From a virus (Duplodnaviria > Heunggongvirae > Uroviricota > Caudoviricetes), in IMG/VR virus record IMGVR_UViG_2695420487_000015: a DNA stretch of 39,156 nt. One strand, 5' to 3'. Below, piece by piece: positions 12,699-25,170 of this stretch; position 1 is the first letter of the stretch, and the number at the start of each line of letters is the position of its first letter. Below the pieces are notes generated by a model, which did no database searches, was not told the DNA's origin, and was given only the letters and a program-made list of their open reading frames with translations. A program made the translations under genes and the position numbers.

Positions 12699-13412
12699 TT
12701 GGATAACAAGGAATATCAGAGGCACTTTGGAATAATAACTGATGAATTACAAAAGCCTTCCGATAAACATTTGAGAGCATTTACGCAGGTTGCTGACATT
12801 AGAAAGTTTGAAATTGAGATGTATTGGAAAAGAGCTACGTATTTCTGGACCATTATTGCTATTACTTTTACTGGTTATTTTGCTTTAGCCTCCGCAAATA
12901 GCTTTCCGTTCAAAAATGCATTTTCTCTTTTGCTTTCCAGTATGGGATCCGTTTTTACTCTTTCATGGTTTTTGGTAAACAGAGGTAGCAAATACTGGCA
13001 GGAAAACTGGGAAAATCACTTAGACCTGATGGAAAACGGCATAACTGGGCCGCTCTATAAAACTGTACTCTCACGACCGTCAGTCGAAGCCAAAAAAAAC
13101 GCACCTCAACTTGCGAGTACTGATAAAGATTTTATCGACAAACATATCACCGGCCCCAAAAAAATATCAGCATCCAAAATTAACCAATTAGTTGCATTTT
13201 ACTTGCTTGGCATATGGTTAATATTAGTAATGACAACAATTACTAACATCTTAAAACTATCATTCTGGAGTGAATCCACGATAGAAGTAGTGTTGAGCGT
13301 GGGAGTTTTAATTTGGTCAGCAATAGCCACTAGTTTAATGTTTTGTAAGTCAGCCACCTATACAGGAATACAGACTTCAGAGGCAAGAAAACGCTCTTCG
13401 AATTTGTTATAA
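12699..13412 (+). CDS. Cargo gene: predicted four-helix membrane protein of unknown function
   Basis: AT-rich ORF with four hydrophobic segments. Track start is a TTG at 12699 preceded by AAGAGGA; the first ATG is at 12819. Lies between tail genes V and S. Confidence 0.6.
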   Translation: MDNKEYQRHFGIITDELQKPSDKHLRAFTQVADIRKFEIEMYWKRATYFWTIIAITFTGYFALASANSFPFKNAFSLLLSSMGSVFTLSWFLVNRGSKYWQENWENHLDLMENGITGPLYKTVLSRPSVEAKKNAPQLASTDKDFIDKHITGPKKISASKINQLVAFYLLGIWLILVMTTITNILKLSFWSESTIEVVLSVGVLIWSAIATSLMFCKSATYTGIQTSEARKRSSNLL

Positions 13413-13680
13413 CGTTGGTGATACACTAATAAATTCATTTAAAGCCCTCAGTTTTGGGGGCATGTAATCTCTACTTTCTCACGGAAAGAGAGTCCAGGAT
13501 GTACACCAGCGCTTGACGCGGAAAGCTAGTCACTGGTGGCAATACTGCGGGTGCGACATAGACTACGCAGGAAGCGCACAATATCCGGAAAGTAGGTTGT
13601 GTTTTCGTGTGGGAAAGGATGCCGCCTTAGAAGATCGGCGGCAATAGAGGTATGCAGTTCTATCTCTGGTAAAATTTTGT

Positions 13681-14757
13681 TTATTTTCGTTTGCCATAAG
13701 ACTGGGTTAGAATCGGAGTAATATCCTTAGTAAAGATATCTAGTCTTTCTTTTTCGGCTGAGAAAACATACTGTCTGGCTTGAATTACATTTTGCCTACT
13801 AATTAAGTTTGACACCTTTTCTGGTTTGCTTAGTGCAACTTTGGCACCCTTGAATATCAACGCTAAGCCCGGTGATATTGTAAAAATACATCCATTATCA
13901 AATGAAAAATCATTTTTTAAGAAAATAAAAGGAAAATCACTTGAAACAATGGCATATCCCTTAGGTGCTGAGTACAAATATACCCTACAACTACTCTCAT
14001 TGGTGATTGAGGAAAAAGGTAACGCCATAAATCTATGCATCTTTCTAAGTAAGTAAAACATTTCCCTCCGCTGTCCGCTGTCCGCATTAACTAGATACGT
14101 TCCTCCCTCCTTTAGTATAGATAACAAAGACCTCCATTCAGAACGTGGGATTATGCTCGCACCAGAAGGAATGAGATCCTTATTAGTATTCAGTACTTTC
14201 TTGATGGTGGTGTTTATATTTTTTAATTTTGGCATGGAGCCTTTATCAAAAAAATCATCCATACCTTTGTTTCTATAACATAAAAAACGGGCCATGAAAA
14301 TTGCCATGTTTTTTAAATCGTTGAAATCAATCTCATGCAAACCACTACATACTATCGAACGTGCGAATTTTTTTTCCGAAAGCTTGCCAAGCAACCAGTG
14401 TCTACGCACGAAATAATGACTACCTGAAGCATTTTTAAAATGCTCCTTTAATTTATAAAATTGCCACATTGCGTCTACAAAATCAGGGTAACAATCCTCT
14501 AGTATTTTAAAACTGTCCTCAATAAAGTTATCTCTATCCCCATCAATATAAAGAGTATGCCTTCGCTCTTGACCACAAATTTTTGTGGCATTAAGAAAAG
14601 TAATCCTTTCTTTTATTTGCTTTTTGGTGGCATCTGTTTTCACAAAACCATAAACAGTATCTTTCCCAGTCTTTGGGTCTTCAGATGTTATTTTAAAATG
14701 CCTGATATAAGTTGCAGGCAGATAATGCTGATAGTTTTGAAAAGTTCCCTTTGACAT
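13681..14757 (-). CDS. Cargo gene: DUF4238-like protein, candidate single-gene anti-phage defense protein
   Basis: AT-rich, 358 aa from the ATG at 14757, preceded by GGAGG and only 13 nt after the S stop. N-terminal HYLPATYIRHF resembles the DUF4238 signature as I recall it. Confidence 0.6.
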   Translation of the reverse strand: MSKGTFQNYQHYLPATYIRHFKITSEDPKTGKDTVYGFVKTDATKKQIKERITFLNATKICGQERRHTLYIDGDRDNFIEDSFKILEDCYPDFVDAMWQFYKLKEHFKNASGSHYFVRRHWLLGKLSEKKFARSIVCSGLHEIDFNDLKNMAIFMARFLCYRNKGMDDFFDKGSMPKLKNINTTIKKVLNTNKDLIPSGASIIPRSEWRSLLSILKEGGTYLVNADSGQRREMFYLLRKMHRFMALPFSSITNESSCRVYLYSAPKGYAIVSSDFPFIFLKNDFSFDNGCIFTISPGLALIFKGAKVALSKPEKVSNLISRQNVIQARQYVFSAEKERLDIFTKDITPILTQSYGKRK

Positions 14758-14770
14758 AGTAACCTCCAAT

Positions 14771-15223
14771 TTACCAAGTCATAATTTTTTTAATGATAAT
14801 ATATTCAACCTCTTCAGTTAAATCATTATTGAAACCAATGAGTGGTCGAGTGGGGTATTCAATCCGTCTGCTGTTAATGTTTGGGGCATCCTTTAACCCG
14901 TACTGATGCACCTTAGCCATACGCTGTACCTTGCCGGTAAATTCCACGACCGCCGCGTTATTCCCCGCCGTGGCTTTCATAAAGCGACTGGTACGGAGTT
15001 TGGCGAACATTTCCCGCTTAACCCGGCCTTTTTTGGCTTTTACCGGCTGGCGTTTTCGGGCGGCGTAAGGTGTCCCGTCCGGGGCTTTCTGCGTTTTAAT
15101 CCGGCGCTGTTGACGGGCTCGCAGGGTCTTCGCGATATCTGCGGCCATTCTGCGACGGGCGGCAGGTGACAGCGCCGCTATCAGCCCCGCGAGCTTATCG
15201 TCAAAGGGTTTAAAGTCATTCAT
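14771..15223 (-). CDS. S: Tail completion protein S
   Basis: 150 aa; position and size as in P2. Confidence 0.8.
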   Translation of the reverse strand: MNDFKPFDDKLAGLIAALSPAARRRMAADIAKTLRARQQRRIKTQKAPDGTPYAARKRQPVKAKKGRVKREMFAKLRTSRFMKATAGNNAAVVEFTGKVQRMAKVHQYGLKDAPNINSRRIEYPTRPLIGFNNDLTEEVEYIIIKKIMTW

Positions 15224-15683
15224 GCAATCGACTCACAAGCTCACCGTTAACATACAGCTCAACCGGTCGGGTAACGGGTTCCGGCGGCTGCGGCTCTTCT
15301 GCCTGTTCGACGTGGAGCTTATCCCCTGACTCTTTAACGATGGTGCGCTCGGTCAGCATCAGGCTGATACTGACATCAACGCTGTCGTTGTCGTTGATAT
15401 CGGCAAAATAGGTGAATCCCTTTTTACGCCCTTCATCGGTCGTCATAATGTCAGCCTGATGGATGCGCAGCCACGCCTGAATCGGAACAAGTAACAGCTC
15501 GATATCATCCGTGAAATCGGTCACCACCACATTCAGCGTGTACCGGTTCTCAAACGACAGCGACGTCGCCAGCGTCGAGGCCAGATTCCCGTTGTCGATA
15601 AAGACACGCATCATATCGGGGTTTCGCGCCAGCACCGGCACGGCGTCAGTTAAGGCTTTTCGCAGACTCTTCGGCTTGTACAT
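15216..15683 (-). CDS. R: Tail completion protein R
   Basis: 155 aa; position and size as in P2. Confidence 0.8.
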   Translation of the reverse strand: MYKPKSLRKALTDAVPVLARNPDMMRVFIDNGNLASTLATSLSFENRYTLNVVVTDFTDDIELLLVPIQAWLRIHQADIMTTDEGRKKGFTYFADINDNDSVDVSISLMLTERTIVKESGDKLHVEQAEEPQPPEPVTRPVELYVNGELVSRLHE

Positions 15684-15936
15684 CGATTTTATCCTGGCAA
15701 TTTTTTATTGTTCTGACCTGAAGCGCACAGCGCTCGAGGGCGCTTTCGAGCTGACGTATATCCGCGCTCAGGTCACCATTGGTGGACGGATCACTTCCCG
15801 GCATCGGGCAAAGACTGACCCTCGGGCATGCGTTGTAAACAATCACCGGCGTCGGCACAGGTGGCGCGCTGGTGCAACCGACGCACAGCATCAGGTAAAT
15901 CAGCGCTATACCAGCGGCGAAGCTGTTCATTTTCAT
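15646..15936 (-). CDS. lysC: Outer-membrane lipoprotein spanin (Rz1-like), starting inside lysB in another frame
   Basis: Start at ATG 15936 (MKMNSFAAGIALIYLMLCVGC) with a GAGGT RBS; signal peptide with lipobox-like LCVGC and a proline-rich stretch. Confidence 0.6.
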   Translation of the reverse strand: MKMNSFAAGIALIYLMLCVGCTSAPPVPTPVIVYNACPRVSLCPMPGSDPSTNGDLSADIRQLESALERCALQVRTIKNCQDKIDVQAEESAKSLN

Positions 15937-16204
15937 TGAGTAACCTCGTAATGGTCTGTTCCCGGCGTTGCGCCCGCGCTCCGGCATCGATGAGCTCACC
16001 GCGCAGTAAGACCTGAGCAGTCTCATTTTCCCCACGGATACGGGAGGCCGTTTTAAGCTGGCTTTTCAGCATGGTAATCACCGTTTTTTGTTCACCGGCG
16101 ACCTTGTTCGCCCGCTCAAAGGAGCGGGTCAGACTGGTGTTTTCGTGGCGCATCCAGAGCAGCCCGACCACCGCCAGCACTAACAGCACGATCATCGTTT
16201 TCAT
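15791..16204 (-). CDS. lysB: Inner-membrane spanin (Rz-like)
   Basis: 137 aa with an N-terminal TM helix and charged coiled-coil region; ATG overlaps the endolysin stop. Confidence 0.7.
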   Translation of the reverse strand: MKTMIVLLVLAVVGLLWMRHENTSLTRSFERANKVAGEQKTVITMLKSQLKTASRIRGENETAQVLLRGELIDAGARAQRREQTITRLLNENEQLRRWYSADLPDAVRRLHQRATCADAGDCLQRMPEGQSLPDAGK

Positions 16205-16710
16205 TTCGCCCCCTTCAGGCAGTAGGTGCGCTCGCGAAAGCGGCGATTTTCGAGCCCGGTATTACGCTCACCATTCACAAACACCCAGCGGGTGAGCTGG
16301 TCACAGGCTTGCCACCATTGCCGGTGCTTCAGGTGATACACCAGCGTCGAGCGACAGGCCGCGCCGGTGCCGACGTTAAAAGCGAAGCTGACCAGCGCGT
16401 CATAGACGGCGGGTGGCATTTCAACAGGCACACAGACCGCGAGTCGTTTCTCGACGTTCAGCACATCAGCGACCAGATTCGCGGCGGCTTCTTTCTCGGT
16501 GATATCCCGTTTTGGTACCACCCCGGCAGTGTGGCCGATGCCTGACGTCCACACGCCCGCGCTGCACTGGTAAGGGCGCAACCGGCACCCCTCGAGGTCG
16601 GCAATCAGCGCGAGCCCCTCCGGCGAGGTGTGAAGCAAACGAAAATCAGGCACCAGTGCCGCCAGCGCCAGCACGACGGCCACACTGCAACGTTTAACGA
16701 ATGAGCCCAC
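16201..16710 (-). CDS. Endolysin, lysozyme-like with an N-terminal signal-anchor-release (SAR) type hydrophobic segment
   Basis: Catalytic region resembles phage 21 / P1 SAR lysozymes. There is no in-frame ATG; the proposed start is the GTG at 16710, preceded by AAGGGGG. The track's longer ORF would overlap the holin by about 120 nt. Confidence 0.65.
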   Translation of the reverse strand: MGSFVKRCSVAVVLALAALVPDFRLLHTSPEGLALIADLEGCRLRPYQCSAGVWTSGIGHTAGVVPKRDITEKEAAANLVADVLNVEKRLAVCVPVEMPPAVYDALVSFAFNVGTGAACRSTLVYHLKHRQWWQACDQLTRWVFVNGERNTGLENRRFRERTYCLKGAK

Positions 16711-16915
16711 GAATAACCCCCTTATCAATCCCCATCGAGACGAGATAGCGGTATTTCTTTCGCTGGTACCAGAAGTTAACCAGCGCGGTAAAAATGGCGC
16801 AGCTTCCCCCGACATAAAGCGCGAGCCGTTCCGGTGTCTGCGTACCGAAATACGCCAGCACCACTGACAGCCAGTAGGTCAGAAAGGTTGTGATTTTATC
16901 CACAGTCAGTCCCAT
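16694..16915 (-). CDS. Holin
   Basis: 73 aa, two hydrophobic helices and a basic C-terminus, immediately upstream of the endolysin. Confidence 0.7.
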   Translation of the reverse strand: MGLTVDKITTFLTYWLSVVLAYFGTQTPERLALYVGGSCAIFTALVNFWYQRKKYRYLVSMGIDKGVIRGLIR

Positions 16916-17109
16916 AAATTCACGGTCTCCGATACCGGTGCGGCGTCGACTTCAGGCAGACTGACCGCCGTGCCATGTGGCAGGACGACACCCAGCTCAG
17001 CGAGCCCCGGATTAGCCAGCAATACAGCCTCGACCACACCTTCAGTACGCCCGTAATGGCGCTGACATAACGTGTCGAGCGTGTCGCCCTGATGCGCGAT
17101 GACGTTCAT
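16906..17109 (-). CDS. X: Tail protein X
   Basis: 67 aa, ...QGDTLD..C.RYYGRTEGVVE.VL.ANPGLAELG..LPHGTAV.LP, close to P2 gpX. Confidence 0.85.
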   Translation of the reverse strand: MNVIAHQGDTLDTLCQRHYGRTEGVVEAVLLANPGLAELGVVLPHGTAVSLPEVDAAPVSETVNLWD

Positions 17110-23952: not shown

Positions 23953-25170
23953 TTAATTAGCTTTATCAAGGCGTCCCCCCACCACCATCCGCTTGTAATT
24001 TATTGCGAACAACTTAATTTTTTCAGGGAACTTTGACGCCAAAATTATTGACTTTCTGTCTACATATGAATAAAAGGGCATTGATATCAAAATAGTTATC
24101 ATCGAAGTTAAGATAAATGTAACAAACGCACCAACGGACGGCGACGCAATGTTTTTGTAAACCCAAAAACCAACTATAGATATAACAAATGGATGAAGCA
24201 AGTATATTGAAAATGACAACTTCCCAATAAACAAGACTACATTTTTGCTCATCCCCCTTAAACATCTCCCATTCACAAAGACAGAAGCAATAATCAAAAA
24301 AGAACCAAGCGATATTGTAAACTCTGGCCATTGTATTAATATACCGCATTGAAACTGAAGGTAGAGGTAAAATTCAACCAGATCTTTATACGCAGTGCTC
24401 GCCGGTGCATACCCAACAAGATAAAGGCCAATAAACAACATAAGAAGCGATACAAACTTTCTTAACCGTCCATTATTTTCACTTATCTCGAAAGTTGATA
24501 AAAACACACCAGAAAGGAAAAGCCCATAATAAATTACATTAATACTACCAGACAAAAACATGCAAACAAATGAAATAAACGACAACCAGCGAAGAATGGT
24601 CTTGTTCTCACCAAACAGAGATATAAATCCGTATACCAATATAGAACCAAAAAACTCAATACTAATAGTCCACAGAACATAGTTATACTTTATATTACCA
24701 AAAAGCATAGCGCCAAATGAAGCATCCCATATGGCTGACACTATATTCCCATCAAAACTAAACGCAGTCATTAACGGCATTGATGCAGCGGGGCTATCCT
24801 TATCCGGAAAAAAGCCCAACAACATTATAAAATAGCAAATAATCACAGATGCTGCTACGGGAACCCCAAGCCTAATGTATCTCTTCAATGCTGATGCTTG
24901 TATATAACGTATTTCGTTATTATTTTTTTGGCAACTCAGTGACAAAACCAACCCGCTCAAAACAAAGAATAAGCTAACAGCAGATCCCCCCTTATAGAAA
25001 AAAGTAAAAGGGCTATTAAATAAATTTTCTTGCCACTTGCTATCAAACATACTGCCAGAATGCACCGAAGGTATAAACATTAAAAATGAATGCGATAAAA
25101 CGACAGCCATGGCTGCCACACCTCTTATCCCATCAAAGATTTTTACATTATTTCTCTCATTATCACTCAT
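23953..25170 (-). CDS. Cargo gene: acyltransferase family 3 membrane protein (O-antigen/LPS acetylase type)
   Basis: AT-rich, 405 aa, about 10 hydrophobic segments, N-terminal DGIRGVAAMAVVLSHS motif typical of acyltransferase-3; sits in the cos-to-A interval, the P2 tin/old slot. Confidence 0.75.
   Translation of the reverse strand: MSDNERNNVKIFDGIRGVAAMAVVLSHSFLMFIPSVHSGSMFDSKWQENLFNSPFTFFYKGGSAVSLFFVLSGLVLSLSCQKNNNEIRYIQASALKRYIRLGVPVAASVIICYFIMLLGFFPDKDSPAASMPLMTAFSFDGNIVSAIWDASFGAMLFGNIKYNYVLWTISIEFFGSILVYGFISLFGENKTILRWLSFISFVCMFLSGSINVIYYGLFLSGVFLSTFEISENNGRLRKFVSLLMLFIGLYLVGYAPASTAYKDLVEFYLYLQFQCGILIQWPEFTISLGSFLIIASVFVNGRCLRGMSKNVVLFIGKLSFSIYLLHPFVISIVGFWVYKNIASPSVGAFVTFILTSMITILISMPFYSYVDRKSIILASKFPEKIKLFAINYKRMVVGGRLDKAN

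Follow-up and report, generated by a model that had tools for sequence, protein, structure and literature searches.

A P2-family prophage lysis cassette encoding a putative signal-anchor-release endolysin of the P1 Lyz type, a candidate pinholin and an overlapped spanin pair

The window analyzed here is the whole stretch of 39,156 nucleotides of the IMG/VR virus record IMGVR_UViG_2695420487_000015, and it contains a cassette of four lysis genes that encode a small holin, an endolysin of the GH24 phage lysozyme family and the spanin pair LysB and LysC. The cassette is very probably the lysis module within the late operon of a P2-family (Peduoviridae) prophage that looks intact and resides in Escherichia coli; as in P2, the tail genes X and R flank it. 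The identities of the genes, their starts and their architecture are well supported. The endolysin is a putative signal-anchor-release (SAR) enzyme that would be controlled in the manner of Lyz of phage P1, and the holin encoded next to it is most likely a pinholin.

All genes of the cassette lie on the minus strand in the 5'-to-3' order X, holin, endolysin, lysB, lysC, R (Table 1), and neighboring genes overlap at every junction from X through R. The last 10 nucleotides of X cover the holin start, the holin and endolysin genes share 17 nucleotides, and the endolysin stop and the lysB ATG share 4 (ATGA). The overlap of lysB with lysC, which is read in the +1 frame, amounts to 146 nucleotides; a further 145 nucleotides of lysC lie beyond the lysB stop, and the last 38 of these overlap R. 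A sequence-only reading of this DNA had proposed a compact lysis cassette at 15646-16915. The lysC stop and the holin ATG are the exact ends of this span, all four lysis genes were found at the coordinates given for them, and their family matches rule out chance open reading frames (ORFs). The order X-holin-lys-lysB-lysC-R was found in 57 of the 80 IMG/VR relatives compared. Capsid, terminase, tail and integrase genes were found in the wider window, which is a P2-like prophage.

The cassette occupies the X-R slot that in P2 holds the order X-Y-K-lysA-lysB-lysC-R. The X, R, LysB and LysC proteins are orthologous to those of P2, and lysC starts within lysB in the same +1 frame and has the same 38-nucleotide overlap with R. 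P2 Y, by contrast, is a PF04550 holin of 93 amino acids with 18% identity to the holin found here, and no similarity to the endolysin was detectable in P2 K, which gave no match to PF00959 and has no N-terminal hydrophobic segment, in agreement with the earlier statement that gpK of P2 is soluble and different. Descent of the holin and endolysin from P2 Y and K by divergence was considered and rejected, as no similarity was found; on sequence comparison, the pair is a non-homologous replacement of Y and K, that is, a module replacement. A third P2 gene, lysA, is missing from the cassette but occurs in about 19 of the 80 relatives (roughly a quarter), including Escherichia phage Midge and SEN8, where it is located between the endolysin gene and lysB.

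The endolysin was assigned to the GH24 phage lysozymes by its match to PF00959, which covered residues 38-160 and scored 128.5 bits against a cut-off of 22.3. Among solved structures its best match was P1 Lyz (1XJT, Table 1; 1XJU, E 4.5e-20), followed by R of phage 21 (3HDE, E 2.8e-19) and DLP12 RrrD. The alignment to 1XJT opens at Cys8, opposite Cys13 of the P1 enzyme, and places E40, C42, C49 and T55 on P1 E42, C44, C51 and T57. Residues E40, C49 and T55 make up the E-x8-(D/C)-x5-T triad, a motif present in all 120 cluster representatives, and the protein carries the full trio of P1 Lyz-type cysteines, with the catalytic C49, the caging C42 and the N-terminal C8 aligned to P1 C51, C44 and C13, respectively. 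The longer pattern E-x-C-x6-C-x5-T was found in 119 of the 120 representatives and [KR][KR]C in 109, the exceptions being mostly N-terminally truncated calls; the matches listed in the homologue search were close relatives only (at least 77% identity). In P1 Lyz, a disulfide between Cys44 and Cys51 reportedly keeps the enzyme inactive as long as its SAR domain stays in the membrane, and after release Cys13 is said to isomerize this disulfide so that the catalytic Cys51 is freed.

The 73-residue product of the ORF upstream of the endolysin gene had been called a holin, and its match to the generic phrog_20 holins agrees with that call, as does its RefSeq name, 'phage holin family protein'. Of the gene identifications, that of the holin is the least secure. 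Hydropathy analysis located one hydrophobic segment at residues 8-24 and another at 31-50, with a short polar loop between them and a basic tail with a net charge of approximately +6. The first transmembrane domain (TMD1) is moderately hydrophobic, and the second (TMD2) carries a small-xxx-small ladder formed by A32, G36, A40 and A44. Judged from its size, its topology and its pairing with a membrane-tethered endolysin, the protein is most likely a pinholin. Several search results weigh against this assignment: the holin reached only 19.8 bits on PF16080, the HP1 holin family, which is below the cut-off of 28.8; it had no NCBIfam match and matched no S21-family model in the Pfam and NCBIfam searches; and a BLASTP comparison with the HP1 hol pinholin returned an E value of 0.13, which is not significant, so that membership in the HP1 pinholin family was dropped. 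Family sequence does not place the protein among the pinholins, and what points there is its being a small protein with two TMDs encoded beside a SAR endolysin gene.

The alternative that holds up best is that the protein is a canonical class II holin forming large holes and that the endolysin is merely tethered to the membrane, as for LydA and Lyz of P1. The lack of significant similarity to either of the experimentally defined pinholin families would fit such a holin, and P1 provides the precedent that SAR endolysins can operate with canonical holins (PMC9025707). We consider this a tentative possibility that is less easily reconciled with a protein of 69-73 amino acids with two TMDs, of which TMD1 is moderately hydrophobic and TMD2 bears the small-residue ladder; moreover, SAR endolysin genes usually adjoin pinholin genes, and the related holin of SEN8 has been annotated as 'pin holin'.

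Nearly all relatives have a start codon at both codon 1 and codon 5 of the holin gene, each being ATG or GTG, and a single relative has GTG/ATC; the start was set at codon 1 by PGAP and at codon 5 by the annotators of phage Midge. The two codons could represent a charge-neutral dual start or mere uncertainty over the true start. The additional residues of the longer form, MGL[ST], are uncharged and hence unlike the dual-start motif of the S21 and lambda antiholins, and the persistence of codon 1 is due in part to its lying inside the terminal Leu-Trp codons of X.

At the N-terminus of the endolysin, K6 and R7 precede a hydrophobic stretch free of charges, C8-V20, as localized by hydropathy, and this arrangement is kept in the relatives. 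The proposal that the enzyme is of the SAR type like that of P1 accords with this hydrophobic N-terminus, with P1 Lyz as the best match and with the alignment of Cys8, E40, C42, C49 and T55; on the same grounds, the anchor would be expected to leave the membrane, and the SAR assignment is accordingly a putative one. The best in silico argument for it is the conservation of the three cysteines throughout the clade, which implies that the N-terminal segment is retained, reaches the periplasm and behaves as a SAR domain. The length and composition of the segment count against it. The uncharged core is 13 residues long (CSVAVVLALAALV), contains Ala, Val and Leu but no Gly, and has a Gly/Ala/Ser/Thr content of 33-38%, as compared with 53-63% in the SAR domains of P1 Lyz and R21, which are approximately 20 residues long; the anchor resembles the h-region of a signal peptide as much as a classical SAR domain. 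Such an anchor would be marginal in the membrane through its shortness and not through its composition.

It is worth considering whether the segment is instead a cleavable Sec signal peptide, with the lysozyme secreted as a soluble periplasmic enzyme. A core of 13 residues (C8-V20) has the typical length of an h-region, contains an A-L-A|A motif and is followed by P21-D22, and SignalP called a signal peptide on the homologous HP1 enzyme. However, Cys8 lies within the segment and is conserved along with the caging Cys42 and the catalytic Cys49, and cleavage would discard this activating thiol; the core is not followed by a polar c-region that has a good -3/-1 site; and a muramidase secreted without regulation would leave the neighboring holin with no purpose. 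We therefore regard the signal peptide as a minor and distinctly unlikely rival of the SAR anchor. The definitive test of a SAR domain is the absence of signal peptidase cleavage together with release from the membrane upon depolarization or by a pinholin (PMC9239132). A speculative extension of the SAR reading, which we think unlikely, is that the short, Gly-free anchor of this endolysin clade, with its activating Cys at the cytoplasmic edge, could constitute a mechanistically distinct SAR subtype; in it, release would result from hydrophobic mismatch, the anchor not being long enough for the bilayer, rather than from weak hydrophobicity. Expression would be kept low by the near-universal GTG start, and the timing might be tuned by a charge-neutral dual start of the holin (codons 1 and 5).

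In the mechanism that we propose, the holin of 73 (or 69) residues, most likely a pinholin, would collect in the inner membrane and depolarize it at a set time. Translation of the endolysin would begin at GTG 16710 and be coupled to the end of the holin gene; Sec would export the protein, and K6R7 with the C8-V20 anchor would keep it at the inner membrane. If it behaves as P1 Lyz does, its catalytic Cys49 would be caged by a disulfide to Cys42 for as long as the protein is anchored; depolarization would free the anchor, Cys8 would attack the caging disulfide and, with Cys49 freed, the E40/C49/T55 muramidase would degrade the murein. LysB and LysC would then disrupt the outer membrane, by analogy with the spanins of P2 and lambda.

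Both spanin candidates belong to established families. LysB scored well above the cut-off of 92.75 bits of the TIGR03495 phage_LysB equivalog (Table 1), its TMD having been placed at the N-terminus by hydropathy. LysC matched the NF038368 P2_Rz1 equivalog over residues 4-87 (cut-off, 27 bits) and scored 58.4 bits on PF23793, also with a cut-off of 27; by analogy with P2 and lambda, the two proteins probably function as spanins. The genes had been described as overlapped, and this holds: the lysC ATG at 15936 is located inside lysB in the +1 frame, and the gene runs past the lysB stop into R, which is exactly the geometry of lysB and lysC in P2, the type example of the overlapped spanin architecture (PMC6139136). 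The N-terminus of LysC reads as MK, an h-region, LCVG, C21 and T, and would direct lipidation at C21. The residue at position -3 of this lipobox is a Cys, and this departure from the consensus [LVI][ASTVI][GAS]C weighs against a lipoprotein; the same Cys is present in P2 LysC, and the lipoboxes of o-spanins are known to deviate (PMC6139136).

The lengths of LysC in databases disagree: the curated P2 protein has 96 amino acids, PGAP in RefSeq starts at Met16 and gives 81, and several phage records start at Met45 and give 52. The 96-residue form is supported by its alignment to P2 LysC, its conserved ATG and Shine-Dalgarno sequence, the family models, the predicted signal peptide with its lipobox, and suppressed wobble variation. 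The two 96-residue proteins align without a gap at 69% identity, with M1, FAAG, L-C-x-G-C-T and a Pro-rich stretch invariant; the NCBIfam and PHROG models both begin at residue 4; and ATG-1 with an upstream ACGAGG was found in 36 of 37 relatives, in contrast to codon 16, at which two relatives have ACG. Among 16 distinct sequences, wobble diversity in lysB fell from 0.364 to 0.126 inside the lysC overlap, a second wobble analysis showed the same trend, and the segment belonging to lysC only displayed lysC-phase periodicity (0.167/0.080/0.383); the pattern reads as the signature of two translated frames. That LysC is an 81- or 52-residue protein and not a signal-peptide lipoprotein is what the current database annotations would imply, and we judge it very unlikely. 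Both short forms are without the signal peptide that an o-spanin requires, and gene callers penalize overlaps (PMC6139136), such as the one here, over whose full 146 nucleotides wobble variation is suppressed; the other points against them are the loss of the Met16 codon in some relatives, with ATG-1 and GAGG conserved, the gapless match to the curated P2 protein and the NCBIfam model starting upstream of either Met.

The start of the endolysin gene had been proposed at GTG 16710-16708, and the comparison with relatives supports this position well. The codon is preceded by AAGGGGG at a 6-nucleotide spacing, the 169-residue product ends at 16201, and the same 510-nucleotide gene has been annotated by RefSeq on identical DNA. 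Among 64 IMG/VR relatives, the homologous start codon was GTG in 58 and ATG in 6, and 47 of the 58 GTG relatives had an in-frame stop 1-10 codons upstream with no alternative start between. GTG and AAGGGG are invariant in four close phages, whose endolysin frame is closed by a TGA two codons before the GTG, and the Shine-Dalgarno sequence A(A/G)GGGG is kept in the relatives. In SEN8, YenM_201.16 and ST13phi12.1, relatives at 61-64% identity, the homologous codon is ATG, and it is TTG in ENT90. The GTG overlaps the holin Arg69 codon (CGT) and extends one base into codon 70, and it has probably been retained because an ATG at this site would force a His into the basic tail of the holin.

One statement of the sequence-only reading was wrong, namely that the endolysin has no in-frame ATG. 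ATG 16815 opens a frame of 204 amino acids, and the same frame holds TTG 16728 as well as, internally, ATG 16419. The conclusion on the GTG start is unchanged because ATG 16815 has no Shine-Dalgarno sequence, sits within the holin gene and belongs to a frame that is closed by stops in the relatives; the 204-residue form had no copy in a collection of 15 billion proteins. It does count against the GTG that in this window the endolysin frame stays open back to ATG 16815, and some pipelines, mainly that of JGI, call forms of 160 or 157 amino acids, with one cluster of 1092 members, yet initiation at ATG 16815 (with a 35-residue cytoplasmic extension) or at GTG 16683 (160 amino acids) is scarcely credible when the stops of the relatives lie 1-10 codons before the conserved start, the ATG of distant relatives falls exactly on the GTG position, and the 160-residue form would lose the basic K6 and R7 and the conserved Cys8.

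Two further features of this region were noted. A terminator-like hairpin at 16669-16649, in the anchor-coding region, was dismissed as a chance occurrence: it has a weak T-tract, and the scan returned 6 sites against 3.4 +/- 2.1 in shuffled sequences. Synonymous-site diversity among 63 relatives was 0.20-0.23 over the first 20 codons of the endolysin gene (16650-16710) and 0.21-0.22 over those of the holin gene (16855-16915), with approximately 0.40-0.47, or about double, in the rest of both genes, and the drop reaches past the short overlaps. Such low wobble diversity is mild and a common feature of the 5' ends of genes.

Comparison with other characterized lysis systems places the endolysin closest to P1 Lyz, with which it shares E-x8-C-x5-T, a caging Cys two residues past the Glu and a further Cys within the hydrophobic segment at the N-terminus. 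Identity over the catalytic domain is approximately 40%, and the organization of the P1 lysis genes differs from that of the cassette. The P1 anchor is a Gly/Ala-rich segment of about 20 residues with a mid-membrane Cys, whereas the anchor here has 13 residues, is Gly-free and carries its Cys at the cytoplasmic edge. Phage 21 likewise has adjacent, overlapping genes for a small two-TMD holin, the S21 pinholin, and a GH24 SAR endolysin, R21. However, R21 has Asp instead of Cys in its triad and no disulfide control, S21 is not detectably related to the holin found here, and the possible dual start at codons 1 and 5 adds no charge. In HP1, a phage of the P2 family, a pinholin and a SAR endolysin have been demonstrated by experiment (PMC7312051). 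Its endolysin is 31% identical to the one described here (E 3e-25) and has the same EGC...C motif, and its hol and lys genes overlap, but the holins are not significantly similar and the HP1 cassette is located elsewhere relative to the tail genes.

The closest counterparts are found in Eganvirus-type and related Peduoviridae, which include the Yersinia vB_YpM phages, Klebsiella RCIP0057, Escherichia phage Midge and Erwinia EtG. These share the gene order, are approximately 76-79% identical in DNA and have endolysins 83-86% identical to the one in the window, with the GTG start and AAGGGG in common. A like cassette is present in the more distant SEN8/Fels-2-like phages and KP12. Annotations of the relatives include 'SAR endolysin' and 'holin class II', and 'pin holin' in the SEN8/Fels-2-like group. 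The genome announcement of Midge lists a class II holin, a SAR endolysin and spanins (PMC12697156), and the cassette described for KP12 is of the P2 type, its spanins being overlapped and its SAR endolysin resembling P1 Lyz (PMC9902359).

The cassette is thus already known, as an ordinary variant of the Peduoviridae lysis module that is annotated on identical DNA and has published equivalents in Midge, KP12, SEN8 and HP1. Five complete E. coli genomes matched the 2-kb region at 100% identity, and 52 genomes matched it over its full length at 95% identity or more; coverage of at least 80% of the query was likewise recorded for 52 genomes. On the identical DNA, RefSeq lists a 222-nucleotide holin gene, a 510-nucleotide 'lysozyme', lysB of 414 nucleotides and lysC of 246, and the exact 169-residue endolysin, again named 'lysozyme', is present on over 1000 Salmonella, Citrobacter and E. 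coli contigs. The scientific value of the analysis is small, and its practical value lies in the curation of starts and names. For the endolysin the GTG start is correct, and the 160- and 157-residue calls are truncations; LysC should have 96 amino acids, as the 81-residue RefSeq form and the 52-residue form of phage records drop the lipoprotein signal peptide. Misnamed entries were also seen: the identical holin is a 'primosomal protein' in many records, relatives of LysC are called 'holin', and RefSeq gives the name 'endolysin' to P2 lysA and to a membrane protein of SEN8.

Table 1. Coordinates of the lysis cassette, its sequence features and flanking tail genes in the window.
Feature	Position	Strand	Evidence
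Tail/baseplate gene X	16906..17109	-	PF05489 Phage_tail_X, 6.8e-29
Holin, small class II-type, 73 amino acids, candidate pinholin	16694..16915	-	phrog_20 holin, 3.4e-19
Alternative holin start, GTG codon 5, 69-residue form	16901..16903	-	Start codons in relatives; Midge annotation
Endolysin Shine-Dalgarno sequence AAGGGGG	16717..16723	-	Read from sequence; 6-nucleotide spacer to GTG
Endolysin, 169 amino acids, GTG start, GH24 P1 Lyz type	16201..16710	-	PF00959, 2.4e-37; 1XJT, 4.9e-21
Putative SAR signal-anchor K6-R7-C8-SVAVVLALAALV-P21	16648..16695	-	Hydropathy; [KR][KR]C motif; Cys8 aligned to P1 Lyz Cys13
Catalytic/caging motif E40-G-C42-x6-C49-x5-T55	16546..16593	-	Alignment to P1 Lyz E42/C44/C51/T57
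lysB, i-spanin, 137 amino acids, TMD residues 4-18	15791..16204	-	TIGR03495, 141.3 bits; phrog_89, 1.2e-51
lysC Shine-Dalgarno sequence GAGG, 7 nucleotides before ATG 15936	15944..15947	-	Read from sequence
lysC, o-spanin, predicted lipoprotein, 96 amino acids	15646..15936	-	NF038368 P2_Rz1, 121.3 bits; PF23793, 6.6e-16
LysC lipobox C18-V-G-C21, Thr at +2, closing the predicted signal peptide MKMNSFAAGIALIYLML	15874..15885	-	LC[AV]GC kept in relatives and P2
Tail completion gene R, downstream cassette boundary	15216..15683	-	PF06891 P2_Phage_GpR, 7.9e-44
Tail gene S			PF05069, 1.3e-33

Elsewhere in the prophage, a low-GC island (12699-14769; approximately 38-39% GC against approximately 56% for the prophage) separates tail gene S from baseplate gene V, at the site that orf30 occupies in P2. 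It contains a plus-strand gene (12699-13412) for an 8xMP or 'RipA family octameric membrane protein' (PF24838, 3.6e-36) and a minus-strand gene (13681-14769) for a 362-residue DUF4238 protein (PF14022, 27.7 bits). The island is probably prophage cargo and possibly a defense locus. A scan of the low-GC cargo genes with PADLOC, which covered both island genes and an Acyl_transf_3 ORF at 23953-25170, returned no match. This ORF, also inside the prophage and of low GC content (approximately 36%), encodes 405 amino acids (PF01757, 3.9e-25) and looks like a moron for an acyltransferase of O-antigen or other surface polysaccharide. A tRNA-Met gene was located at 1598-1673 in low-GC DNA, just beyond the tail-gene end of the prophage, and the integrase gene (30803-31810, plus strand) is at the opposite end.

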